A stretch of 64,000 nucleotides of DNA from Alphaproteobacteria bacterium. Lineage in GTDB: Bacteria > Pseudomonadota > Alphaproteobacteria > Rs-D84. The notes under the pieces are model-generated. The model ran no database searches. It saw nothing but the letters and a program-made list of their open reading frames with translations, and had not been told where the DNA came from. This document shows, piece after piece, positions 30,588 through 56,873 of this stretch (position 1 is its first letter; each line of letters opens with the position of its first letter). The position numbers were made by a program, and so were the translations under genes. The stretch is from the NCBI GenBank assembly GCA_017960855.1, contig JAGCYJ010000003.1, positions 4,686-68,685 of the forward strand. The letters are read 5' to 3'.

Positions 30588-32216
30588 TTAATTTAACGGT
30601 GCACCCCAATGTTGTTGAATTGAACGTTCTGCATCCATCGGACTGACCAAAACTTGTGGTGTCAAAATCACAACCAACACGTCGCGTTGTGATGCAGTTT
30701 CACGAGATCCTGACAAAGCCATAAAGTCCGGATCACCCAAACCGTATCTGGTGTCGCTGTTGTTCTGTTTTTCAAATCCAGAAACAACCAACATTTGACC
30801 AGATTCCATGATAACTTCTTGCATGAAACTACGTTCTTCAACTTCTGGCAGCTGCAATGTCACTTCACCAATTGTCTGGGTTGACATCTTTAACAATTCA
30901 CGCACAGACATTCTGAACAACAACAAAATCTTGCCGTTTTCCAAAACATTCGGTAACAATTGCATTGAAAAACCTGTTTCTAAATCGTCTTGGTCAACTG
31001 TGGAAGATTCAACTGTTGTAAAGTTACGTGATTCAAACCGTTTGATATAGCCAGTTGTACGTGTGTTATTGACCGGTGCAACGCGATTATTACGTGTTGT
31101 CACCCCAACGTTTGTAACCAAGGAAACCTTGCCCTGTTTTGCCAACGATTGAATCAAAGCATTCGTTCCTGCAACCCCAGCCAACGAGCCGTTCATAATA
31201 TCATCTTGGGTATACGCACCGGCGACTTGATTTCCATTGACCGTATGTGTTGCCCCGGTAAGCGCAGAAACATCATTGGACAAAACAGCAATGTTCATCG
31301 CACTGGCTTCGGTTGTTGCCAAATTGTTCTTTGGATTCGCAACCAAATTCAAACCAGAAGTAGAGTTAATTGCCGCTGCCAAATTCAGACCAAATGCAGA
31401 ATCATTAGACAACGATACCTGCAAAACCTTCACGTCTATTGTGACCAACTGTGACAAGCGTTTGTTTTGACGATCAATATAGTCGCCGACACGTGCCAAC
31501 ACGGACGGTGGCGCGGTAACTGTAATGGTTCCTAAACTGCGCGACACGGTAAAGTCCGCATTACCACCCTTTCCTATAATAGATGATATAGCATTTTCAA
31601 CTTCGTCCCATTCTTTTAATGTAGATTCCAACGAAACCTGGTTTCCATCATCTGTATTCATTGCGGTCTGATATGAAACCTCGGTCCCCAGGGCATATAA
31701 TGTAAATGTCTTGGTTTCCGTCTCATAGAAAACAATGGATGTCTTGTCAAAGTACCACAACAAATCCAAATCTGTCGCAACTTGTGATAACAGTCCAGAC
31801 AATTTGCCAGTGTATGCTATATTCATTGTCTTTTTCAATTTTTCACCATTGACCTGGCTATCAATCTTTACCGGCAATCCAGTCACAGAATTGATATCGT
31901 TTGCCAACACCTGTAATGTCACTGGTTCATTTAATAATATAGTCACACCAGAATCTGTCTCAAATTGAGATGGCAATTTATTCTTGTGTTCCAAAACCGT
32001 GGATTTATTTCCCAACCAAATACCTTCGGACATAGAAACCGTATCGCCACTGGCAACCTTGGCACGTGGGTTTTTAGACATTTCAAATGCATCATATGCA
32101 TTAACAAAATCCTGATCAACCGATGCCGCCACCTTGGCAGATTCGCGACGGGTGCACCCCCCAACGACACTTGCCACCAGTGCAAACACAACAAATAATC
32201 TTGTCAGTTTTCTCAT
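30588..32216 (-). CDS. Secretin lipoprotein, type IVb pilus PilN (R64) family-like
   Basis: Lipobox VVGGC. C-terminal secretin domain (GFSMQLLPNVLENGKILL...QMLVVSGF...VLVVILTPQVL). Confidence 0.8.
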   Translation of the reverse strand: MRKLTRLFVVFALVASVVGGCTRRESAKVAASVDQDFVNAYDAFEMSKNPRAKVASGDTVSMSEGIWLGNKSTVLEHKNKLPSQFETDSGVTILLNEPVTLQVLANDINSVTGLPVKIDSQVNGEKLKKTMNIAYTGKLSGLLSQVATDLDLLWYFDKTSIVFYETETKTFTLYALGTEVSYQTAMNTDDGNQVSLESTLKEWDEVENAISSIIGKGGNADFTVSRSLGTITVTAPPSVLARVGDYIDRQNKRLSQLVTIDVKVLQVSLSNDSAFGLNLAAAINSTSGLNLVANPKNNLATTEASAMNIAVLSNDVSALTGATHTVNGNQVAGAYTQDDIMNGSLAGVAGTNALIQSLAKQGKVSLVTNVGVTTRNNRVAPVNNTRTTGYIKRFESRNFTTVESSTVDQDDLETGFSMQLLPNVLENGKILLLFRMSVRELLKMSTQTIGEVTLQLPEVEERSFMQEVIMESGQMLVVSGFEKQNNSDTRYGLGDPDFMALSGSRETASQRDVLVVILTPQVLVSPMDAERSIQQHWGAPLN

Positions 32217-32246
32217 CTATTTTCTCCTACGGCCTTAACGGGTTCC

Positions 32247-33188
32247 CTATTCTTCTGATGTTGAAATAACCAACACACGATTTCCTTTGTAAAACTTCGC
32301 ATATGGAATTGGCGTGGCGCGTTCAAAGTTGCGAACCAAAGCAGATGCAACATCAACAAAACGTCCCTTGAACACTGCACTTGCTTCAATTGGATATTCA
32401 CGCGTTGTTGTCCAAACCAAATCCCAACCTTCTTTGTCGCACCAAGATTGTAAAACTTCGCGCAAGGTTTGGCCACTGGCAACGACCCAAGAGCGAACTT
32501 GATCAATCATTACGGCCGGCGCTTCGGCATCTGCGGAGATATTCACACCAAACTCAGATTCCAAACCATTGATTGCCGCATCAACGCCTTCTCTTTCTTC
32601 GGCGGTATATGCCGCGATTTCTTCTTTGCTTAAACCAATCTTTGCCAAGTAAGCGGTATAACCATCGGCATACTTGTTGCAGTTTTTGCGACCCGAACGC
32701 GACAAAGTCAAAACATCGCCACCATCATCTTCCAACACTTCGCGGTGCAACAACGGCATTTCAGCCCCAGTATCGCATTCATCTTCAAAACCCATTGGGA
32801 CCTGATTACCGTGCAACATGTTTGCACCACCAGACCAACCGGTAAAGTCACCACTGACGCCCATATTGAAATTGTTTTCAACAACCAAATCTGCGCCTAT
32901 TTTGGACACGATGCGAATATTGTCAGATTGTTTGTCTTGGCTGCACATATCGTCTTCGCAACCAACTTCTACATCGGCATCGGTTCCCGCGATCGGCCAA
33001 GCCGGCACTTCCACCTGGGCATAGTTCTGATTGACTTCTGTTTCGACATACCGACTTTCATCAACATCCCTATCTTCGGTGTAAAAAACCTCTGATGTCA
33101 CAATCTGGGGCATGACCGTTTCGCTTGCAGCGAAGCAATAACCCGCCGCACAACAGAACATTGCCGCTATCAAAATCTTACGGAACAT
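32247..33188 (-). CDS. TcpQ-domain protein (PilL/TcpQ-like secretin partner)
   Basis: Signal peptide. C-terminal 80 aa WVVASGQTLREVLQSWCDKEGWDLVWTT...AKFYKGNRVLVIS fits the TcpQ domain pattern. Lies 30 nt upstream of the secretin gene. Confidence 0.7.
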   Translation of the reverse strand: MFRKILIAAMFCCAAGYCFAASETVMPQIVTSEVFYTEDRDVDESRYVETEVNQNYAQVEVPAWPIAGTDADVEVGCEDDMCSQDKQSDNIRIVSKIGADLVVENNFNMGVSGDFTGWSGGANMLHGNQVPMGFEDECDTGAEMPLLHREVLEDDGGDVLTLSRSGRKNCNKYADGYTAYLAKIGLSKEEIAAYTAEEREGVDAAINGLESEFGVNISADAEAPAVMIDQVRSWVVASGQTLREVLQSWCDKEGWDLVWTTTREYPIEASAVFKGRFVDVASALVRNFERATPIPYAKFYKGNRVLVISTSEE

Positions 33189-33369: not shown

Positions 33370-33918
33370 ATGCAAAACACATTGTTTTTGGTCGCAATTT
33401 CACTTGTTTTAATTCTTGCCATAATTATTACCGTTGTGGTGTTTCGTACAAATGCACGAATTCAAAACATTAACAAGACCCTGGAATATCAGTATAACCT
33501 GATTGTAAAAATGCAATCTGTGCTGAAAACAAAATCTGCAACAAACGCGGTCGCCGAAAATGCAGAAATGATTTATCAAGATTTACTGCAAAACTTGATT
33601 CCAATTATGGCGGCAATCAGCGTTATGCCCCGCAACACAACCGAACACCCATTGTGGCGCGCACTGGGCGGAATTATGGATGAATATGCTAAAAACCCAT
33701 TTGCATTGGAAAAATTACGTCGGGCAATCAAACTGGACGCTGATATCGCCCGGAATGTTGAAAATTATATTTCGCGTGCCGACCGCTTGTTGCGCCATTT
33801 GAACAACACCGAACCAGACGGCATTTTGGCTACAACCTTTACAGATGGCTTGCTGGGACAATCGCTAACCTTCTTTGCCCAGGCACAAACCTTGGCCAAC
33901 CAAGAACATAATGAATAA
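33370..33918 (+). CDS. Membrane-anchored helical protein, unknown function, overlapping sufB start
   Basis: 182 aa with a single N-terminal TM (LFLVAISLVLILAIIITVVVF). Its stop lies 8 nt inside sufB. Confidence 0.5.
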   Translation: MQNTLFLVAISLVLILAIIITVVVFRTNARIQNINKTLEYQYNLIVKMQSVLKTKSATNAVAENAEMIYQDLLQNLIPIMAAISVMPRNTTEHPLWRALGGIMDEYAKNPFALEKLRRAIKLDADIARNVENYISRADRLLRHLNNTEPDGILATTFTDGLLGQSLTFFAQAQTLANQEHNE

Positions 33919-35236
33919 ACTTTCGGTAAATCTTGTTCGTAAAATATCCGCACTGCGTGGCGAACCAAAATGGTTGTGCGATTGGCGTCTTGATGCGTTG
34001 AAACAATGGAAAAAAATGCACGAACCACATTGGGCAGAATTTGATTACACACCGATTGATTACGATGCATTAAACTATTACAACGAATCCAAGCCCATTG
34101 ACAATTCTGCATTGAAAAAAACTTATGAAAAAATGGGTTTGCCTGAATCGGAACAGCGTGCGCTGCTTGGCATGGCGACCGACACTGTGATTGACAGCAA
34201 ATCTGTTCACACATCTTATTCTGCGGAATTGGAAAAATTGGGGATAATATTTTTACCGTTCTCGGAAGCGGTGCAACAATATCCCGATTTAGTAAAAAAA
34301 TATTTGGGTTCCGTTGTCCCAGCAAACGACAATTTCTTTGCGGCATTGAACGCAGCGGTATTTTCAGATGGCACATTCGTCTATATTCCACCGCACACGA
34401 AATGCCCAATTGATTTGGCCAGTTATTTTAGAATTGAAACCGCCAAGATTGGTCAGTTTGAACGCACGCTTATTATCGCAGACAAAGGTTCCGAATTATC
34501 GTATATGGAGGGCTGCAGTGCCCCACGTCGTCCAAACCACCAATTACACAGCGGTGTTGTTGAAATCATTGTTGCAGATGACGCAACCGTAAAATATTCT
34601 ACTGTTCAAAATTGGTATGCCGGTGAATACAAACACGGAAAACAAACTGGTGGTATTTTGAACTTTGTTACCAAACGTGGTCGTTGCGAAAAAAATGCAA
34701 CGCTTAATTGGACCCAGGTCGAAATTGGATCGGCATTAACATGGAAATACCCATCAACGATTTTGGCCGGAAACAATGCACATAGCGACTTTTATTCGTT
34801 GGCAATTACACGTGACGCGCAACAGGCAGATACAGGTACAAAAATGATTCATTTGGGTAATAATACTGTATCAAATATTTTGTCATATGGCGTTGCGTTG
34901 GACAATTCAAAACAGACATTTCGCAGCATGGTTTCTTTTTCAGGTCATGGTTGTAAAAACGCATCAAAGTGCGACACACGAATAATTGGTAATAATGCCA
35001 TCGCAAATACATTACCAACAATAATTCATACCAATGGCGACAACACACAAAGTCACGAAGCAACCACCGGTGCAATTGACGCGAAACAATTACAATACCT
35101 TATGCAGTCGGGCATGGACGCAGATAGCGCAATCGCACTAATTATCGGCGCAGCGGCATCGCCAATTATCGCGCGTTTGCCGATGGAGTTTTTAGTTGAA
35201 TCTAAACAGTTGATTCAGATGGCATTGTCGCACTAG
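33911..35236 (+). CDS. sufB: Fe-S cluster assembly scaffold SufB
   Basis: WTQVEIGSALTWKYPSTILAGNNAHSDFYSLAITRDAQQADTGTKMIHLG matches the SufB core. ATG at 33911. Confidence 0.9.
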   Translation: MNKLSVNLVRKISALRGEPKWLCDWRLDALKQWKKMHEPHWAEFDYTPIDYDALNYYNESKPIDNSALKKTYEKMGLPESEQRALLGMATDTVIDSKSVHTSYSAELEKLGIIFLPFSEAVQQYPDLVKKYLGSVVPANDNFFAALNAAVFSDGTFVYIPPHTKCPIDLASYFRIETAKIGQFERTLIIADKGSELSYMEGCSAPRRPNHQLHSGVVEIIVADDATVKYSTVQNWYAGEYKHGKQTGGILNFVTKRGRCEKNATLNWTQVEIGSALTWKYPSTILAGNNAHSDFYSLAITRDAQQADTGTKMIHLGNNTVSNILSYGVALDNSKQTFRSMVSFSGHGCKNASKCDTRIIGNNAIANTLPTIIHTNGDNTQSHEATTGAIDAKQLQYLMQSGMDADSAIALIIGAAASPIIARLPMEFLVESKQLIQMALSH

Positions 35237-44030: not shown

Positions 44031-45332
44031 ATGCAGAAATACTTTATTCAAACTTTTGGTTGTCAAATGAACGTCTATGACGGATGGCGCATTGCCACCA
44101 TGCTGAACGCGCGTGGTATGGTTCAAACAAATGATGTGGCGGATGCGGATATCATTATTTTGAACACGTGCGCCGTTCGTGCAAAAGCGACGGATAAAGT
44201 ATATTCTGCATTGGGTCGTATTCGTCTGATTAAAAAGCCCGATGCTATAATGGGCATTGTTGGTTGTGTTGCACGTGAATCTGGCGCAGATGCATTCCGC
44301 CGTGTTCCTGATTTGAATTTTGTTTTGGGACCCCAAAGTTATCATAAATTACCCGAGATATTTGAAAACCCAGACACACGTTTATTGAATATTGATCTGG
44401 GCGGTTTGGAAAAGTTTGATGAAATGCCCCAGATGGAAAAGTCGCCACTGGTAACCTATATTCCAATTCAAGAGGGTTGCAATCATTGTTGTACATACTG
44501 TATTGTGCCATATACCCGCGGTCGTGAAATATCGCGCGCTTTTGCCGATTGTGTTCGTGATACCGAATTGGCGGCAAATACCGGTGCAGTGGAAATCTGT
44601 TTCTTGGGTCAAAATGTTAACGGCTATAAATACACAGATGAAGACGGAAAAGTGTATCGCCTGTCTGATTTAATTCGTGCTGCTGCAAAACTAGACACAG
44701 TGAAACGCATTCGCTTTACATCCAGTTATCCAACCGAAATGACGGATGATTTGATTGATATGTTCGCGACGGAACCCAAATTATTACCGTTCTTGAATAT
44801 GCCGATTCAAAGCGGTTCACCCGATGTTCTGCGCCGTATGAACCGTCCATACGATTTAGATCAGTATATGTGCATTGTTAAAAAACTTAAACAAGCGCGT
44901 CCAGATATTCAAATATCATCTGATTTTATTGTCGGTTTCCCTGGCGAAACAGATTCTGATTTTGAACAAACACTTCAAATCGCACGAACCGTTAAATACA
45001 TCAATTCTTATTCATTCAAGTATTCGCCCCGCCCCCATACCGCTGCGGCAATTATGCCGGATCAGATTCCTGAAAATATTAAATCAAAACGGTTAGCTGT
45101 TCTGGACGCAGAACTTAATGAAATTCAACGTGCGTTTAATGAATCTTGTGTTGATAAAACCCTGATGTGTTTATGTGAAGGTCCCGACAAGACCGGTCGT
45201 CATTTGGTATATCGCACCCCATATATGCAACAATGCATTGTCGCAAAGCCAGACGGCGAACCAAAACAAATGTGCAACATCAAAATCACCGCCGCAAACA
45301 AGGCATCACTGCGCGGAAAAATCGTTGATTAA
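44031..45332 (+). CDS. miaB: tRNA-i6A37 methylthiotransferase MiaB
   Basis: FIQTFGCQMNVYD N-terminal cluster, radical-SAM CNHCCTYC, and a TRAM-like C-terminus. Confidence 0.9.
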   Translation: MQKYFIQTFGCQMNVYDGWRIATMLNARGMVQTNDVADADIIILNTCAVRAKATDKVYSALGRIRLIKKPDAIMGIVGCVARESGADAFRRVPDLNFVLGPQSYHKLPEIFENPDTRLLNIDLGGLEKFDEMPQMEKSPLVTYIPIQEGCNHCCTYCIVPYTRGREISRAFADCVRDTELAANTGAVEICFLGQNVNGYKYTDEDGKVYRLSDLIRAAAKLDTVKRIRFTSSYPTEMTDDLIDMFATEPKLLPFLNMPIQSGSPDVLRRMNRPYDLDQYMCIVKKLKQARPDIQISSDFIVGFPGETDSDFEQTLQIARTVKYINSYSFKYSPRPHTAAAIMPDQIPENIKSKRLAVLDAELNEIQRAFNESCVDKTLMCLCEGPDKTGRHLVYRTPYMQQCIVAKPDGEPKQMCNIKITAANKASLRGKIVD

Positions 45333-46891
45333 AATCTAAATCGTCCATTTAGTGCGACACTAAACGACATTCCAAACACATCATCATGAACGACCGCTAT
45401 GTGCATGTCACCGCCGGCCGCATCAAATACAGACCATGCGGACACACCAAATCCCACACCAAAAGTTTTATCTGTTTGAATAAGTGCACGCGCAATATAA
45501 TCGTATCGCAAACCAGCAAATTCATAACCGTATTTAAAATCAGCACCACCACCTGCAAATAATTTTGTATCGTCACAATCTAATACACCGACATATTTTT
45601 CGCCAACCGTTATAAACGGCGACACATTATATCCACCCGACAAATTAAACTGATGACCGTATTCACCAATCGCATATAAATAGGTACCGTCTGGGTTATT
45701 GGTCGCGCCACGCCCGTTAAACACCGGACCAACATTAAAATATGTCTTATTTGCCCCAACATGCACTCGAACAAAATCATCATTGTCCACATCATATTGG
45801 GCATCTAACCCGCCACCCAAAGACCGACCTGTATATTCATTGATATCGTCTGAACGATCGATATTCATAAAATAACCTGATAATTCCAGATGCAGATTAT
45901 TATACGGGTTTATTTTGACACTTGGTTGAATTCCACTAAGCGCCACATCTGACGAATATACAAAAAAAGGTTTTAGCCCCAACACAACGCCCTTCTCTAT
46001 ATACATTGATTCCAACATTTTATGTGAATACATTAAAGATACTGGTTCCATCAGTTTGATTGGATTGGTGCGAACACTGTCCGACAAAATACCGTTTATT
46101 TCACTCATCGTTTGCGCACGATCTAGTTTAGAAAACAATTTATTATCCGTACCAGACGCACGCAAATCGTTCAAGAACCGCCCCTTGTCATTTTTCAATA
46201 TCCGCGCATAATCAGTTGAACGAACCAATCGAACAAAGATATCATTATCGACCTTGTATGTCTGAAACACATGCAACACGTCCAGTGCATCAGAATCAAC
46301 ATATACAACACCATCGCCAGTTGCATTTAAAAACAATAGAAGCGGACTATTAACCACACTATCAAAACTTAAGATCACATCACCCGATAAATATATATTC
46401 TCCGGCGCATTAAAATCATACATATTACCAACGGAAAATCTGGCATTAGTAAAACTGACTGAATCTGCGTGCGCCGCAAGTTGCGTAATATTATTTAAAT
46501 CAATCCCGTTCGCATCACGCACCGCAATATCATAACCAGAATTTAATCCGATATCGGTGGCACTCGCATTTGAACTTATAACTTGGACAAAGTGCGCCCC
46601 GCTCTGCAACGACACATTTGCACCGAACACACCGGTGTTTTCCAATTCTACGGTGCAATTAGCACAAACATTAACAGTGCCCGCTATTTCACCAAAATTA
46701 AAGATATGTAAATTATCAACAACCTTGATATCGTGCGCTTCGAACAATACCCCGTCATGAACTGTAATATCTTCGTATACTGTAAAATCCGCATCACTAA
46801 TCGTATTCCCCGTCAAGTCCAACGATTTTGCATTGTTGGAAATACCGCCCAAAAACACAGAAATCACGAAAAGATGCGCCAGATTTTTCAT
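45329..46891 (-). CDS. Autotransporter (type Va) outer-membrane protein
   Basis: 520 aa. Signal peptide, repetitive N/G/V-rich passenger, and a C-terminal beta-domain of about 270 aa ending in GRFRF. Its stop overlaps the miaB stop (convergent genes). Confidence 0.6.
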   Translation of the reverse strand: MKNLAHLFVISVFLGGISNNAKSLDLTGNTISDADFTVYEDITVHDGVLFEAHDIKVVDNLHIFNFGEIAGTVNVCANCTVELENTGVFGANVSLQSGAHFVQVISSNASATDIGLNSGYDIAVRDANGIDLNNITQLAAHADSVSFTNARFSVGNMYDFNAPENIYLSGDVILSFDSVVNSPLLLFLNATGDGVVYVDSDALDVLHVFQTYKVDNDIFVRLVRSTDYARILKNDKGRFLNDLRASGTDNKLFSKLDRAQTMSEINGILSDSVRTNPIKLMEPVSLMYSHKMLESMYIEKGVVLGLKPFFVYSSDVALSGIQPSVKINPYNNLHLELSGYFMNIDRSDDINEYTGRSLGGGLDAQYDVDNDDFVRVHVGANKTYFNVGPVFNGRGATNNPDGTYLYAIGEYGHQFNLSGGYNVSPFITVGEKYVGVLDCDDTKLFAGGGADFKYGYEFAGLRYDYIARALIQTDKTFGVGFGVSAWSVFDAAGGDMHIAVVHDDVFGMSFSVALNGRFRF

Positions 46892-46983
46892 AACAGAAAA
46901 ACCTTAGCACAAAAGAATATATTCCTAAAACACAAAAATATAATTGGGGCACCAAAAAGCACCCCAATTCGCACACAATGAAA

Positions 46984-47550
46984 TTATTGCTTCAATGTTC
47001 CCCACGCGGCCTTATACCCGCCATCACGCGTCAGAATCAAACGAGCATTATTTAACTGGGTCGCCGTTAAACCACGAACAATATAAGATTGTTGCAAACG
47101 CCCCACCCTATCTATTCTTAATTGTGGCAAATCCACCGCCATTGGCGACATATCGCAACAGGTACTGTCATTACACGTTCCACACTGATAGATATGGGCG
47201 GTATAAGTTTTTCCTGGTCGTAAATCAATCAAATCAACCTTCATTTTCAAGCCGGCATCCGTTTCTTTGAATTTGATTGTCCCCATGGGTGATTCACCAC
47301 CACGCGAACTGCGCGTAAACATTTTTGCTTGGACATCATCTACATCTGACACATCATATGTTTGATAAAAAATAATTGTTTCTGACGACTGCCCTTGGCG
47401 CATTTTTTGTTTATTGTGCTGGCACCCACTGTGATCTTTTCTATTACATTGTGCGTGATGGGCATAATAACTTTTCGGACAAGAACACCCACCCATCAAT
47501 GACGCAATACCTAAAAATGATGCCAATAAAAATAAAGATTTAGATTTCAT
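46984..47550 (-). CDS. Lipoprotein with degenerate Cu/Zn-superoxide-dismutase (SodC)-like fold and Cys/His-rich N-terminus
   Basis: Lipobox LMGGC. GTIKFKETDAGLKMKVDLIDLRPGKTYTAHIYQCGTC aligns by eye with SodC GSVTITETDKGLEF...PPGEHGFHIHAKGSC, but most metal-binding His residues and the Zn loop are missing. Confidence 0.45.
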   Translation of the reverse strand: MKSKSLFLLASFLGIASLMGGCSCPKSYYAHHAQCNRKDHSGCQHNKQKMRQGQSSETIIFYQTYDVSDVDDVQAKMFTRSSRGGESPMGTIKFKETDAGLKMKVDLIDLRPGKTYTAHIYQCGTCNDSTCCDMSPMAVDLPQLRIDRVGRLQQSYIVRGLTATQLNNARLILTRDGGYKAAWGTLKQ

Positions 47551-47645
47551 AAATGTCTCCTTTGGTTGTTATGGTTACAGCAACATTTTATATTATTTAT
47601 CGTAATATATCGTCAGGTTTGAATTCATAAACCCCAGGAAATGAT

Positions 47646-47662
47646 GCACATAGCGCGTTTTT
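47646..47662. repeat. Half-copy of the conserved hairpin family
   Basis: GCACATAGCGCGTTTTT equals one arm of the 36984..37029 element. I found no matching second arm nearby. Confidence 0.6.
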
Positions 47663-47692
47663 AAAAAAATGTCGCCAGCGTTACTGGCGACA
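47663..47692 (-). terminator. Terminator after OMP gene 47716..48321
   Basis: Minus strand reads GTCGCCAG-TAACG-CTGGCGAC followed by ATTTTTTT. Confidence 0.65.
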
Positions 47693-47715
47693 CTAACATA
47701 CACAACGAACAAACA

Positions 47716-48321
47716 TTAGAACATAAATCTTACACCGACATCACCACCAAAGTCGTGCAACCCAGAGTGAACATCTGCATAAGTGTATCTGGCCGACACA
47801 TCAACCGCGAATACTTTCCAGTCAAATGTCATACCCAGTGTTCCCATTGCAGAGAAACGTGTTTTATCATCACTCTTGCTGCCGATGACATCAGATTTGC
47901 GCGACACATCGGTAAATGCCATACCGATACCGGCACCAACGAACGGACGAACCATTTCATACCCACCGAATTCCCAGTATGAATTCCACATCAAAGTCTG
48001 CAATTTGTTTTCTACCTTGACATCTTTGATATCGCCGAAATCTTTTGTGTCTTTGGTTTTGCTGTATATAGACCATTCAATTTCAGAACGCACTGTATCA
48101 CAGATATCCAAACCCATTGCCAAGCGGCCACGGAAATCCATATCTTCAATAGATTTCTTTTCGCCATTGAACTTATAGTTCAAATTGTTATACCCCAAAC
48201 CACCGCGCATTGCGATATATGGGTCCAGCCCCATGACGGTAAAACTCGGATCGGAACTTTGACCTGCAAATGCAGGGCACGCCAAAACGACCGCCATTGC
48301 TGATATTGCTAGTTTTTTCAT
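47716..48321 (-). CDS. Small outer-membrane beta-barrel protein (8-strand OmpA/Omp25-like)
   Basis: Signal peptide MKKLAISAMAVVLACPAFA. Ends VGVRFMF. Confidence 0.7.
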   Translation of the reverse strand: MKKLAISAMAVVLACPAFAGQSSDPSFTVMGLDPYIAMRGGLGYNNLNYKFNGEKKSIEDMDFRGRLAMGLDICDTVRSEIEWSIYSKTKDTKDFGDIKDVKVENKLQTLMWNSYWEFGGYEMVRPFVGAGIGMAFTDVSRKSDVIGSKSDDKTRFSAMGTLGMTFDWKVFAVDVSARYTYADVHSGLHDFGGDVGVRFMF

Positions 48322-48425
48322 TTTTTCTCCTTTTTGGTTTTTGTTTTCATGTCTATGTAAAAGATGTTATCAGACAAAAGTGCCTGATTACATAGGTATG
48401 GTTTCCAAAAAGAAGTGATTGAAAA

Positions 48426-49898
48426 TTAAAACCGCTGACGCATGGTAAACTCTGCCGTCCATTTATCATACTCACGCGAATGAATATTTGAATCGCGTTT
48501 GGTATAACTGACTGTTATTGTTGGGACAAATCCCCAAATATCAATTTTGTTATTAGACAGCGACACTGCATAACGTTGCAAAAAGTTGCGTTCCGTAATT
48601 TGTGCAAACTTATGGTTTTTTACCGTCCAACGCGGGCCATCATAATTCATCCACGAAAAAGACGGTTCCAAATATACACTGAATCCCCATGGCATCTCTG
48701 CGCCAAACCCCAGCCCGACATTATATTGCCAATTTGCATAAGAATCATCTTTTGCGGTATCACGATCAACCCCACCAAACAGCGCCACATATTTTGTCGC
48801 ATCCAACGAATAACTGACATATGGCGAAACACTGTATGTCTGACCGTCCATATATTCGCCGTATTCGTCGTATTTATTGTTCAACACACGGAAAGTCAAC
48901 CCCGTTGATAACTTACGCGTCCAGTCATAATGGGTGTCTAATTTTCCACCCGCCGACCAATTATATTTATCCCAACCATACCAGCGTCGCCCAGCTACCG
49001 CCGCCAACCACACATCACCGCGTTCCCAGATATAGCGTGGACCAGTTGATGCCGACAAATACAGGTCATCAAACTTATGCTTGTTATAAATATTGGTGTA
49101 AATATTGGCTTCGTTTTTCCAGCGCCAGTGATCCGCCAACACAAATTCGTAATTGCCCCCCAACACAAAGTTATAACCAAACGCCCTTTCGGGTTCCGGC
49201 AAAACGCGGGTAAATTCGCCCCATTCGTTTACGATTGTTTCTTCGCCACCTGACGCTTGATTGACATTGTTATCAGGTGCCGCACCAAAATTAAACCATG
49301 CGTTCCAGCGTTTATTTTGTCGTGCGACCCAGCGATAATACATCATTGCCTGCCGAACCTTTGGCGGAATGTCCGCCCCCGCCATAGCAAGACGCAAATG
49401 ATAATCGGCACGATACCACTGGTGCTTTGCCATATAGCAGAGCGCCAATTCATAGCGGATTTTTACAAGGTCGGGTTGGTCATCTAGTATCTTGCGATAT
49501 ATTTTTATCGCTTCGTCTAAATTACCCTTTTTCTGTTCCATTTGTGCCAGCAAATACCACCGTTCAATTTCTACCGGCAGATTATTTGTCTGAGGCATTT
49601 GGGTTAATATCTTTGTTGCTTGGTCATAGTCCCCCAAGAATACTAAATGCCCCGCATGTTTTACCGCATCCAGCGCAGACATTGCTACTATTTCGTTTTT
49701 GTATGTTTTTTGTTTCTTGGGTGATTTTTGTGCCGTTTTTGCTGGTTTATTTTCTTGGGCTTTTTTATCTTGTTCCGCCTTGATATAATCTATATAAGCA
49801 GTTTCCACAACCAGTGGTTTTGTTTCATCGGCGGGTGCAGATTTTATTCCCACACAACACATACACAATACGGCAAAAATAGTTGCAAATCTTTTCAT
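48426..49898 (-). CDS. Slam-like outer-membrane protein (TPR + DUF560 barrel; type XI secretion)
   Basis: Signal peptide, TPR-like helices (GNLDEAIKIYRKILDDQPDLVKIRYELALCY), the DUF560 start RQNKRWNAWFNFGAAPDNNVNQAS, and a barrel ending FTMRQRF. ATG at 49898 follows AGGAA. Confidence 0.7.
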   Translation of the reverse strand: MKRFATIFAVLCMCCVGIKSAPADETKPLVVETAYIDYIKAEQDKKAQENKPAKTAQKSPKKQKTYKNEIVAMSALDAVKHAGHLVFLGDYDQATKILTQMPQTNNLPVEIERWYLLAQMEQKKGNLDEAIKIYRKILDDQPDLVKIRYELALCYMAKHQWYRADYHLRLAMAGADIPPKVRQAMMYYRWVARQNKRWNAWFNFGAAPDNNVNQASGGEETIVNEWGEFTRVLPEPERAFGYNFVLGGNYEFVLADHWRWKNEANIYTNIYNKHKFDDLYLSASTGPRYIWERGDVWLAAVAGRRWYGWDKYNWSAGGKLDTHYDWTRKLSTGLTFRVLNNKYDEYGEYMDGQTYSVSPYVSYSLDATKYVALFGGVDRDTAKDDSYANWQYNVGLGFGAEMPWGFSVYLEPSFSWMNYDGPRWTVKNHKFAQITERNFLQRYAVSLSNNKIDIWGFVPTITVSYTKRDSNIHSREYDKWTAEFTMRQRF

Positions 49899-49943
49899 TT
49901 CCTGATGCATACAGCATAGCAATTTTAATAATTTTTACCATAG

Positions 49944-49976
49944 AAAAATCCCCCGCGATAGAGGGGGATTTTTTTA
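49944..49976 (-). terminator. Terminator/attenuator-like hairpin between the surface-lipoprotein gene and the Slam gene
   Basis: ATCCCCC-8 nt-GGGGGAT with T/A runs on both sides. Confidence 0.55.
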
Positions 49977-49991
49977 TCTAGCCAGTAAATA

Positions 49992-51344
49992 TCATTCTGG
50001 GTTTGATGGTGTATATGGTTTCATACCATAGCCCGCACGGAATTCGCGTTCATATTGAACAGCGTCGTCGCCAGTGCCTTCGTTGGTTGTTTCCTTGAAA
50101 CGAACAACACCTGTTGCTTCTTCTGGTCCGGCCAAGCCATAATAACCCATATCCAACATACCTTCGCGTTTCACACCATTCGCGTTTGTAGATGTTGCAA
50201 AGTTATTTACAGTCAAACCATCGCCAGTATCCGTTCTAAACTGGTTACCGTCATCACCCGTGGTGCCATTAAAGTTGCTAAAGGCAATGCTTTGGCTTGA
50301 ACCATTTTTAGTGACAGTCACATCATACCAGTTATTAAACGCCATATTCAATGTTTCCACACCACCAACAAAATCTAATGTGGCTGCATTATCCACCAAT
50401 GCAGCATTGGCGTTATGGTGATTGTCATCATTTGTTGCATATACACTACCTACGGCTTTACCCTTAAAGTGCATATCTGATGTTGGTCTGTGTTGCAAGG
50501 TTGCTACTTTATATCCCCCCGCAAACACATCATAGTCCGCATCATCAAATTCAAGACCATCCCAATCGGCAACAGCGTCTGTTTCCACACCGTCCTTGCC
50601 ACGATTGTGTGTTTTTGCATTATCAAAATTATCTTCTGTCACCCCTTTGTATTTACCAAAGTTGGTTGTTTGCAACATACCAAAATCGGAATACGTAAGT
50701 TCGTCTGTGCCACCTTGGGCGGTTATACGGAACGCTTGGTCAATACGGTCCCAACGGCACTTTTTATCCTTTGGACATTTATCCCGACCATTTGCCGCAG
50801 CATGCAAATCTGCGAATGTAGCAGGATCGTCGTCTATGCTGTAAACCAAACGGGCAATGGTTTCTTTGTCCGAAGCAGCATAGTCATTATGTCCCGATGC
50901 ATTATCATCCAACACAATATACTCATAAACGATTCCGCGGAAATCGGATGTTTCGCCATTACGGAACAACTTTTGTTTCCCGCCACCCGCATTAACTATC
51001 AAGGAATCTATTCTGCCGTTGTTGTCCATTCTGAAATGCAACGTCGGGTTTCCACCACCACCGGTTGCAATGCGGAAATTAACGTCGTCCAATCTGTATG
51101 ATGTATATGACAATCCGTCAATATCAACAGTTCCCGTACGGGTAATGATTGAACCTCCACCCTTTGGAACCAAAACTTCGGATGCCATTGATGTAATTGC
51201 GGCATTACTTGTCAACGCATCATCACTGACCGCTTCGCGCACCGTAACAGGTGATGCGCCACGTTGGCCAGAGCCGCCACCACCGCCACCGCCGCCACAG
51301 GCGACCAGTGCCAATATAGATGCCAATGCAATATATTTTTTCAT
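49992..51344 (-). CDS. Predicted Slam-dependent surface lipoprotein (TbpB/fHbp-like C-terminal barrel)
   Basis: Lipobox LVAC followed by a GGGGGGGGSG linker. C-terminal signature FKGKAVG...ATLDFVGG...GYYGLAGPEEATGVVRF...FRAGYGMK. Confidence 0.65.
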   Translation of the reverse strand: MKKYIALASILALVACGGGGGGGGSGQRGASPVTVREAVSDDALTSNAAITSMASEVLVPKGGGSIITRTGTVDIDGLSYTSYRLDDVNFRIATGGGGNPTLHFRMDNNGRIDSLIVNAGGGKQKLFRNGETSDFRGIVYEYIVLDDNASGHNDYAASDKETIARLVYSIDDDPATFADLHAAANGRDKCPKDKKCRWDRIDQAFRITAQGGTDELTYSDFGMLQTTNFGKYKGVTEDNFDNAKTHNRGKDGVETDAVADWDGLEFDDADYDVFAGGYKVATLQHRPTSDMHFKGKAVGSVYATNDDNHHNANAALVDNAATLDFVGGVETLNMAFNNWYDVTVTKNGSSQSIAFSNFNGTTGDDGNQFRTDTGDGLTVNNFATSTNANGVKREGMLDMGYYGLAGPEEATGVVRFKETTNEGTGDDAVQYEREFRAGYGMKPYTPSNPE

Positions 51345-51394
51345 TTTATCCTTCCTTTGTTGGACTGTTGAATTGAATTTCCCCTATCCCACTA

Positions 51395-51422
51395 ATTATA
51401 CCATAAAAAAGCATTAAAGCAA
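51395..51422 (-). promoter_or_regulatory. Promoter for the surface-lipoprotein/Slam genes
   Basis: Minus strand reads TTGCTT, 16-nt spacer, TGGTATAAT (extended -10). Confidence 0.45.
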
Positions 51423-51472: not shown

Positions 51473-51500
51473 AAAAACCGCCCAAACGGGCGGTGTTTAT
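51473..51500 (-). terminator. Terminator after tRNA-Lys
   Basis: Minus strand reads ACCGCCC-GTTT-GGGCGGT followed by TTTTG. Confidence 0.6.
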
Positions 51501-51502
51501 TC

Positions 51503-51578
51503 TGGTGGACGCGCAGGGACTCGAACCCTGGACCCACTGATTAAGAGTCAGTTGCTCTACCAACTGAGCTACGCATCC
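51503..51578 (-). tRNA. tRNA-Lys (anticodon CUU)
   Basis: The reverse complement GGATGCGTAGCTCAGTTGGTAGAGCAACTGACTCTTAATCAGTGGGTCCAGGGTTCGAGTCCCTGCGCGTCCACCA forms a cloverleaf with anticodon loop CT-CTT-AA and an encoded CCA. Confidence 0.95.
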
Positions 51579-51628
51579 AGCGACGACAATTATATACGCT
51601 TTTCCGCCAAATGCAAGTTTTTATCGTA

Positions 51629-56258: not shown

Positions 56259-56873
56259 TTAATCATAGAAATCGTCGCCATTGCTGGTATTAACCGTTTT
56301 ATGACGTTGAATTTGGAAATAATCTTTGCCGAAATTGGTCTTGGTTTTCATATTATGAAACGCAACATCTGTCTTGGCACCCGTCGCATCAACAACCGAC
56401 CAAGAATTTAATTTCACAGGTTTGTTATCAAACACAACCGTCATGTTGCCCAAACCTTCTTGCCCACGCAAATTCATCTTTAATGAAAATGTATTTGGTC
56501 CTTCGCTTGTTTCAACAACACGAATATCTGCATTGCGTAAATCGATATTTTTACGAATCAGAATACCCGCCGGTGTACTGGCTAATGGTACCGTCGTAAT
56601 TTGATCCAATGATTTATCAAAGAAATATAAATCTTTGCCATCCGCAATCAGTTGTACCGGCATCTCATTATAATCTAAACGAACGCGTCCTGGACGCAAC
56701 ATTGAAAATGTCCCCTTGTCCACACGCGCCCCAGATGTTTGCACGAAATCACCAGCAAGCCCCGTTATACTGTTTAAATATTTTTCTGCGCGACTAACCA
56801 ATGCCGTATCCACCGCCGCATACGATATACTTGATACAAACAAAGACAAAATAAACATAAATATTTTTTTCAT
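56259..56873 (-). CDS. lolA: Outer-membrane lipoprotein carrier LolA-like protein
   Basis: Signal peptide. LAGDFVQTS...GTFSMLRPGRVRLDY...DGKDLYFFD matches the LolA pattern. Confidence 0.75.
   Translation of the reverse strand: MKKIFMFILSLFVSSISYAAVDTALVSRAEKYLNSITGLAGDFVQTSGARVDKGTFSMLRPGRVRLDYNEMPVQLIADGKDLYFFDKSLDQITTVPLASTPAGILIRKNIDLRNADIRVVETSEGPNTFSLKMNLRGQEGLGNMTVVFDNKPVKLNSWSVVDATGAKTDVAFHNMKTKTNFGKDYFQIQRHKTVNTSNGDDFYD

Follow-up and report, generated by a model that had tools for sequence, protein, structure and literature searches.

A Slam translocon paired with a family of variable predicted surface lipoproteins in uncultured gut Alphaproteobacteria

Type XI secretion systems (T11SSs), in which an outer-membrane protein of the Slam (surface lipoprotein assembly modifier, DUF560) family displays cargo lipoproteins, have been described as proteobacterial (PMC8406197, PMC12282271). 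The proven Slam cargos are reported to share no mutual sequence similarity, and among 185 Slam-lipoprotein gene clusters, 120 include a TonB receptor and 65 do not (Hooda et al. 2017, PMC5449769). So far, cargo has been found, mainly, through likeness to the domains of TbpB, fHbp, and hemophilin and, mainly, in cultured Proteobacteria. Here we analyze a 64,000-nucleotide (nt) stretch of contig JAGCYJ010000003.1 from an alphaproteobacterium of the Rs-D84 lineage (hereafter, the window), which contains a Slam gene and, immediately upstream of it, a gene for a lipoprotein with the architecture of surface lipoproteins (SLPs). The system itself, a T11SS/Slam together with its predicted lipoprotein cargo, is of a known kind; the cargo family has not been described before and goes undetected by current domain libraries, and it accounts for about 500 clusters (50% identity) in uncultured animal-gut lineages that are unseen by similarity searches of the kind used so far.

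The Slam gene, the lipoprotein, and their pairing

The two genes are co-directional on the minus strand, with the lipoprotein gene transcriptionally upstream and a gap of 93 nt between them. We consider it likely that they make up a self-contained type XI (Slam) surface-display module in which the lipoprotein is the predicted cargo. The parts of the two genes and of their products, with lengths in amino acids (aa), are as follows.

48426..49898, minus strand: Slam/T11SS outer-membrane protein gene, 490 aa from the ATG at 49898; NCBI MBP5363807.1, 'DUF560 domain-containing protein'
48441..49307, minus strand: DUF560 membrane barrel of Slam, residues 198-486, PF04575
49374..49676, minus strand: periplasmic tetratricopeptide repeat (TPR) region of Slam, approximately residues 75-175
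49992..51344, minus strand: predicted Slam-dependent surface lipoprotein gene, 450 aa; exact match to NCBI MBP5363808.1, 'hypothetical protein'
51264..51344, minus strand: signal peptide, LVAC lipobox (Cys16), and poly-Gly tether, residues 1-27
50490..51263, minus strand: beta-rich N-terminal and middle region, residues 28-285 (DSSP assignment on the AlphaFold2 model); no relatives detectable outside the family
49995..50489, minus strand: C-terminal domain, predicted beta-barrel, residues 286-450, eight main strands

The strongest evidence for a cargo-translocon pair is the gene context. We counted pairings over ten distinct genomic contexts, including the window (the other loci are designated by L numbers), and a member of the lipoprotein family adjoins a Slam gene in eight of these. 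In seven (the window, L001, L002-L004, L008, L009/L010, L011, and L012), Slam lies directly 3' of the family member, and in the eighth, L006 of Ca. Enterousia, two paralogues flank a single Slam. The genes flanking the pair are otherwise unrelated from locus to locus, being those for a P-type ATPase, a YadA-type adhesin, or S8 peptidases and glycosyltransferases, or belonging to a mobile element. Locus L009 carries a second paralogue 6.5 kb away. The two paralogues in L006 (1905..6507) are 566 and 505 aa long and correspond to the window protein only over the first 55 residues and the C-terminal barrel.

The product of 48426..49898 is, by its profile matches, a clear Slam/DUF560 protein. A preliminary description of this DNA, made from the sequence alone, had proposed a DUF560-type barrel preceded by TPR-like helices, and hidden Markov model (HMM) searches bear out both parts of the proposal. 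The protein matches PF04575 (SlipAM/DUF560) far beyond chance, with an E-value of 5.4e-35 and 121.8 bits against a cut-off of 22, over profile positions 1-284 of 288. Residues 112-164 match the families TPR_Slam, TPR_19, and TPR_14; TPR_19 (31.8 bits, cut-off 25) and TPR_14 (28.4 bits, cut-off 23.5) pass their cut-offs, and TPR_Slam (PF24575; E 2.1e-8, 35.0 bits) falls just under its cut-off of 35.2. The Slam homologues at other loci also show unmarked PF24575 matches. The strings quoted for this protein in the preliminary description, RQNKRWNAWFNFGAAPDNNVNQAS and the C-terminal FTMRQRF, are present in the translation, for which 49910 and 49922 are alternative in-frame starts.

The lipoprotein begins with MKKYIALASILALVAC, followed by GGGGGGGGSG, that is, a signal peptide, an LVAC lipobox, and a poly-Gly tether, as had been pointed out initially and as can be read directly from the sequence; A15, C16, and G19 are invariant across 37 homologues. 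Residues 28-285 contain conserved islands (SN..ITSM.SEV, Y.SYRLDD, YSDFG, and FAGGY), and the middle, approximately residues 140-260, is variable. The other strings quoted for this protein, FKGKAVG, ATLDFVGG, GYYGLAGPEEATGVV, and FRAGYGMK, are likewise present. The preliminary description recognized no motif in the N-terminal part of the cargo; indeed, these approximately 260 aa show no match to Pfam, NCBIfam, PDB sequences, PDB folds, or BFVD, and the complete window cargo contains no known domain when compared with Pfam and NCBIfam.

The full-length AlphaFold2 model of the lipoprotein has a predicted local distance difference test score (pLDDT) of 85 and a predicted template modeling score (pTM) of 0.83. 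Residues 1-29, that is, the signal peptide and the tether, have pLDDT below 50, which we read as predicted disorder; residues 30-285 are beta-rich, with about eleven strands and a few short helices; and the C-terminal domain consists of eight main strands (291-304, 311-326, 329-334, 341-347, 350-356, 391-402, 409-422, and 429-443) interrupted by a long variable loop (357-390) that is mostly missing in distant homologues. When residues 262-450 were modeled alone, the same strands were obtained (pLDDT 89), with two extra strands of 3-4 residues in the variable loop. In a Foldseek search of the full model against 350,542 PDB chains, the top match was the TbpB C-lobe (5kkx_B; E 1.9e-4, probability 1.0), followed by the full-length TbpBs 4o3w, 4qq1, 9dc4, and 9clt and then by fHbp (5nqz), with E-values up to 2.4e-3; the N-terminal region obtained no assignable match from the full-model search against PDB or against the viral structures of BFVD. 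We read the C-terminal domain of the model as an eight-stranded barrel whose general kind and position, after a handle-like region, are as expected, its TbpB type being unproven by structure alone. The initial reading of the locus as a Slam with a surface lipoprotein gene upstream agrees with these results, the lipoprotein having the SLP architecture of lipobox, Gly tether, beta-rich N-terminal part, and predicted C-terminal eight-stranded barrel.

The lipoprotein belongs to a large family, with 60 homologues in a 90%-clustered collection and, in a 50%-clustered library, 511 representatives at E≤1e-3, 403 at E≤1e-10, and 147 at E≤1e-30. Almost all members are unnamed metagenome proteins; the named ones are from 'Alphaproteobacteria bacterium', Ca. 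Enterousia sp., and Ca. Avelusimicrobium caledoniensis. The window protein was found in identical form on five contigs from independent samples; the contigs with these identical copies are labeled XIEF21, which we take to be a ruminant gastrointestinal metagenome series. The family is modular: profile positions 1-55 (signal peptide, tether, and SN..ITSM.SEV) and approximately 260-437 (the barrel) are shared, and the middle differs; modular matches also cover profile positions 1-139 and 260-437. The barrel (positions ~260-437) is found at domain E-values of 1e-20 to 7e-24 in paralogues with other N-termini. The C-terminal barrel domain is the common denominator of the family and, presumably, the Slam-targeting domain.

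Exchange of the cargo and organization of the locus

The two partners differ sharply in conservation. The Slams are 61-78% identical among five loci, whereas at least three types can be distinguished among the cargos, with only 27-33% identity between types: type 1 consists of the window and L001 cargos (64% identical to each other), type 2 of those of L012 and of a locus in Elusimicrobiota described below (48% identical to each other), and type 3 of that of L009. The genome closest to the window is L012, which shares the gene order from the penicillin-binding protein gene to GatB and is 89% identical in MiaB, 84% in RecJ, 86% in LolA, and 78% in Slam, but only 27% in the cargo.

DNA homology with L012 extends over three stretches at this locus: tRNA-Lys with its terminator (51622..51473, 88% identical); the opening 71 nt of the lipoprotein gene, which specify the signal peptide and the tether (51344..51274, 76% by blastn); and a stretch that begins 12 nt beyond the stop codon and runs across Slam and the gene after it (76% over 2.4 kb). 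The mature coding region of the lipoprotein shows no DNA homology to L012 (blastn). Because homology ends after the tether and resumes past the stop codon, the exchanged segment is exactly the part of the protein predicted to be exposed. The mature coding region thus appears to be exchanged as a cassette between conserved flanks, namely, the tRNA, signal peptide, and tether upstream and Slam downstream, with tRNA-Lys as the apparent conserved upstream boundary of the swapped segment.

Among L001, L012, L002/L003, and L009, the Slam TPR stretch 141-175 is 86-97% identical, and the stretch 106-140 is 74-91% identical. Regardless of the cargo type, conservation within Slam is highest in the TPR region, and accordingly, co-variation of the Slam N-terminal region with the cargo type was rejected. 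Since Slam and, especially, its TPR region are constant, the translocon would have to serve very different types of cargo. The family is a natural experiment on Slam specificity, with nearly the same translocon paired with strongly diverged cargos, so that the conserved cargo islands (FAGGY, F.GKA.G, WYDVTV, GYYG..P.EA.G, and YGMK), located mostly in the C-terminal barrel, become candidate recognition signals. Synonymous divergence (dS) is uneven among neighboring genes: comparison of the window (46987..49898) with L013 (1490..4404), which represents a near-identical strain, gives values of 0.18 for Slam, 0.06 for the cargo, 0.00 for an outer-membrane protein (OMP) gene, and 0.07 for a small lipoprotein gene, which hints at mosaic recombination across the locus.

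The pair is found also in a different phylum. A cargo designated P0036 was recovered, with its Slam (68% identical to the window Slam), on 11 contigs that also carry genes for MurC, glycogen phosphorylase, PFOR, and type IV pilin; RefSeq assigns the proteins of these contigs to Ca. Avelusimicrobium (Elusimicrobiota) and names their Slam 'surface lipoprotein assembly modifier'. The Elusimicrobiota pair sits between a zeta-toxin gene and two HTH_17 genes, and a large serine recombinase gene that overlaps a tRNA-Glu gene is located about 3 kb beyond Slam. The stretch from the zeta-toxin gene to the serine recombinase gene occupies L002 7934..17396 and is present also in L003 and L004. This arrangement looks like an integrative element that carried the T11SS across phyla. 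Among the papers searched, none joined Elusimicrobia with T11SS, and the Elusimicrobiota copies suggest that T11SSs are not confined to Proteobacteria.

The following putative control elements and the tRNA gene frame the pair; the promoter and terminator assignments are consensus readings of the sequence.

51503..51578, minus strand: tRNA-Lys (CTT) gene (ARAGORN), directly upstream of the lipoprotein gene; the same tRNA is in the same place in the syntenic L012
51477..51494, minus strand: terminator-like hairpin 3' of the tRNA, 7-bp stem with 6 GC pairs followed by a T run; consensus match only
51395..51400, minus strand: TATAAT, -10-like hexamer about 50 nt upstream of the lipoprotein ATG, read from the sequence, putative function
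51350..51355, minus strand: GGAAGG, putative ribosome-binding site preceding the lipoprotein ATG
49943..49966, minus strand: short GC hairpin and T run between the two genes (scan and sequence), within the stretch conserved with L012
48369..48388, minus strand: terminator-like hairpin downstream of Slam (scan); weak, consensus match only

The hairpin at 51477..51494 would separate the upstream unit from the lipoprotein-Slam unit, and the one at 49943..49966 may act as a partial terminator that puts cargo expression above that of the translocon. The TATAAT site was not reported by the consensus promoter scan because its -35 element is weak. In four loci (window 51503..51578, L012 6569..6644, L011 6685..6759, and L008 2463..2539), the cargo gene is immediately preceded by a tRNA gene, and the tRNA differs by lineage (Lys, Lys, Gly, and Pro, respectively); the module may use tRNA genes as anchor points in integration or recombination.

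Several other parts of the window are relevant to the cell envelope or to the plasticity of the locus. Between an NlpD/DipM-like gene and tRNA-Lys, the segment 51629..53565 contains two genes that are missing from the syntenic L012, one for a secreted trypsin-like protease (335 aa; Pfam Trypsin and Trypsin_2) and the other for a 315-aa protein with a signal peptide and no family assignment; this looks like a strain-specific insertion beside the tRNA. After Slam, an envelope gene run (45329..48321) is conserved in L012 and L013. The features in this run and the LolA gene are as follows.

47716..48321: 8-stranded OMP_b-brl protein
46984..47550: 188-aa lipoprotein, faint SodC-like match
45329..46891: 520-aa protein ending in RF, no Pfam match
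56259..56873: LolA gene, in the window

In L001, the position equivalent to 45329..46891 is occupied by a 514-aa gene annotated Autotransporter, and tblastn at E≤1e-5 found no link between it and the window 520-aa protein. Elsewhere in the window (30588..33188), the adjacent genes for a secretin (PF00263) and a TcpQ-domain protein suggest a type IVb-like pilus, which could be a further means of surface attachment in this genome.

Proposed pathway, role, and alternatives

The Slam identity, the lipoprotein features, the predicted fold, the recurrent pairing, and the pattern of conservation are results of the present analysis; from the TbpB-Slam1 reconstitution (PMC9090332), we infer a transport pathway. 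The 450-aa precursor would be exported by Sec and lipidated at Cys16 of the LVAC lipobox, and the unfolded lipoprotein would cross the periplasm on LolA and a holdase. Slam would recognize a C-terminal motif of the lipoprotein and translocate it; the lipid anchor would flip, such that the protein hangs off the outer leaflet by the poly-Gly tether.

Several results weigh against the identification of the lipoprotein as a variable Slam cargo. Neither TbpB_B_D (PF01298) nor Lipoprot_C (PF08794) is detected by Pfam at E≤1 in any of the 37 aligned family members, which contain no other known domain either, and a Pfam scan of 10 more distant members at E≤0.1 found neither these nor any other known domain. 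The HMM evidence on which the preliminary description had made its reading depend is thus divided between the two genes: DUF560 is strong, whereas the cargo lacks TbpB_B_D and Lipoprot_C even at this permissive threshold. Sequence searches of PDB with the single protein and with the family profile yielded noise from poly-Gly linkers and lipoboxes and a chance match to a neurexin LNS domain (E 0.05); the 37-homologue profile found nothing in PDB, and there is no sequence-level link to proven Slam cargo. For targeted comparisons, the templates of fHbp and the TbpB C-lobe were checked against PDB 7ket and 3v8u (identical, or identical in 213 of 214 residues). Comparison of the family profile with the single fHbp sequence using hhalign produced no match, and that with the fHbp profile aligned the lipobox only. 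With the TbpB C-lobe profile, only the GYYG..P.EA.G motif aligned (E 0.34, probability 0.2%); this alignment pairs GYYGLAGPEEATG with GGFYGPKAEELGG, an FYGP-like motif, noticed in the preliminary description, at an equivalent late-barrel position, without reaching significance. These hhalign negatives are insensitive because both profile templates are shallow, of low diversity, and limited to Neisseria. In Smith-Waterman alignment, the score against the fHbp C-domain does not reach the mean of the shuffles (z = -1.2). The likeness of folds is weak as well, with TM-scores of 0.2-0.38 for the full model, and the isolated C-domain ranks generic eight-stranded barrels (YwiB 1r0u, PsbO) above TbpB and fHbp in Foldseek, with probabilities of 0.93 for the TbpB C-lobe, 0.96 for fHbp, and 0.90 for TbpB 3v8u, at E ~1e-2 and TM ~0.3. 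The initial designation of this protein as TbpB-like had invoked a barrel signature of four short motifs; the eight-stranded barrel stands in the structure prediction only, and the motifs give no significant match to TbpB_B_D or Lipoprot_C in HMM or profile-profile comparisons, so the designation draws on the predicted fold and the gene context rather than on motifs. Furthermore, L005 and L007 hold orphan family members beside tRNA synthetase genes, with no Slam nearby. Finally, within one cargo type, selection is purifying, with a ratio of nonsynonymous to synonymous divergence (dN/dS) of 0.18 for the cargo versus 0.07 for Slam (one strain pair, 10 amino-acid differences, a sample too small for firm conclusions), and this single near-identical pair shows no sign of positive selection overall in the cargo, with 5 of the 10 substitutions falling in the loop 65-74. 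Given this purifying selection within a type, the diversity of the cargo seems to stem from allele replacement rather than from rapid point change.

The missing sequence homology to proven cargo, the weak fold matches, and the members without an adjoining Slam are what would be expected if the lipoprotein were not a cargo but either faced the periplasm, like an ordinary outer-membrane lipoprotein, or were an accessory subunit of Slam, with Slam exporting something else. We consider this very unlikely: Slam adjacency recurs in 8 of the 10 distinct loci, in two phyla and amid unrelated flanks; the architecture of a cargo is present (lipobox, Gly tether, variable N-terminal part, and conserved C-terminal barrel); an accessory subunit should co-vary with Slam, whereas the lipoprotein is 27% identical where Slam is 78% identical; and such hypervariability is hard to explain in a periplasmic protein. 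It is even less probable, indeed, hardly credible, that the Elusimicrobiota copies and the extreme divergence of the alleles come from misassembly or misbinning into chimeric contigs. All the data are, admittedly, metagenome-assembled genomes (MAGs) or metagenome contigs, but the window protein is identical on five contigs from independent samples, the 11 contigs with the Elusimicrobiota locus carry Ca. Avelusimicrobium genes, and the breakpoints relative to L012 lie exactly at the tether and the stop codon instead of being random. As to the role of the protein, the preliminary description reported no adjacent TonB-dependent receptor. The present analysis agrees: the four open reading frames (ORFs) of at least 580 aa in the window encode an AsmA-family protein, a type IIA topoisomerase B subunit, RecJ, and an ABC transporter; 24 further window ORFs show no Plug or TonB_dep_Rec match (Pfam); and there is no TonB-dependent receptor in the precomputed Pfam gene tables of six other loci (L001-L004, L009-L012). 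Adjacent TonB receptors are missing for fHbp and NilC, too. The absence is less unusual than had been implied, considering the 65 of 185 clusters without such a receptor (PMC5449769).

Tentatively, and with a little less than even confidence, we interpret the exposed part of the protein as a variable surface ligand or antigen, involved in adhesion to host or partner cells or in evasion of immunity or phages, rather than as the nutrient-binding half of a TonB pair. Our grounds are that a TonB partner is missing, that the cassette is exchanged, and that the named relatives, namely, the order Rs-D84/Ca. Enterousia, live with genomes below 1 Mb and without a respiratory chain and may depend on partners (PMC12306168). 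The competing proposal is nutrient capture: the protein, either at the surface or released, would bind haem, a metal, a vitamin, or some other nutrient for an importer encoded elsewhere, in the manner of TbpB, HpuA, or hemophilin, which hand their ligands to TonB-dependent receptors. Most of the characterized Slam cargo acts in this way, and 120 of the 185 clusters have a TonB receptor (PMC5449769); the genome needs iron (SufB is encoded at 33875..35236); and the view taken here spans 64 kb of the genome. Still, no TonB-dependent receptor, TonB, ExbBD, or haem oxygenase is encoded beside the pair in the window or in the six differently flanked loci; nutrient receptors usually keep a conserved binding site, whereas the cargo types found at one locus here are 27-33% identical; and the small genomes of the relatives lack a respiratory chain (PMC12306168), which implies less need for haem. 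We view nutrient scavenging as unlikely. The variable ligand or antigen reading can be extended to a more elaborate scenario, which is possible but, taken as a whole, doubtful: a horizontally exchangeable surface cassette served by one promiscuous Slam in genome-reduced gut Alphaproteobacteria, used for attachment or evasion and not for nutrient piracy, with the module having moved into Elusimicrobiota. If true, such a move would mean a working T11SS outside Proteobacteria.

Comparison with known systems

The closest parallels are with Slam1 and Slam2 of Neisseria and their cargos TbpB, LbpB, HpuA, and fHbp. As in these systems, the window translocon is a DUF560 barrel with an N-terminal TPR region, and the cargo combines a Cys-Gly-rich tether, a beta-rich N-terminal 'handle', and a predicted C-terminal eight-stranded barrel. 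The cargo gene adjoins the Slam gene, as in HpuA-Slam2, and the cargo is far more variable than the translocon, resembling the antigenic variants of TbpB and fHbp. In contrast to the Neisseria systems, the window cargo has no detectable similarity to TbpB_B_D or Lipoprot_C and no TonB-dependent receptor as a partner; its N-terminal ~260 aa have no fold match, and divergence among its allele types is much greater (27-33% identity). A further difference lies in the hosts, which are uncultured gut Alphaproteobacteria and Elusimicrobiota rather than mucosal pathogens.

The module also resembles NilB/NilC of Xenorhabdus, which is, likewise, a two-gene DUF560-lipoprotein module with no adjacent TonB-dependent receptor in a gut-associated bacterium. 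Like the window protein, NilC shows no sequence similarity to TbpB-type cargo, and it had no matches in the 2025 cargo survey (PMC12282271); its role is thought to be host interaction and not nutrient uptake (PMC9100927). The glycan-related role of NilC in colonization is not transferable to the window protein.

The predicted T11SS cargo of Grossman et al. 2025, with an effector, a pedestal, and a C-terminal barrel (PMC12282271), is matched here by a conserved barrel and strand islands together with a variable region. That survey used BLASTp to known cargo domains, whereas the present family was found via co-occurrence with DUF560, and a MAG-derived family without similarity to known cargo would probably be missed by it. 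Unlike the survey, in which T11SS was treated as proteobacterial, the cargo family of the window includes members from Elusimicrobiota.

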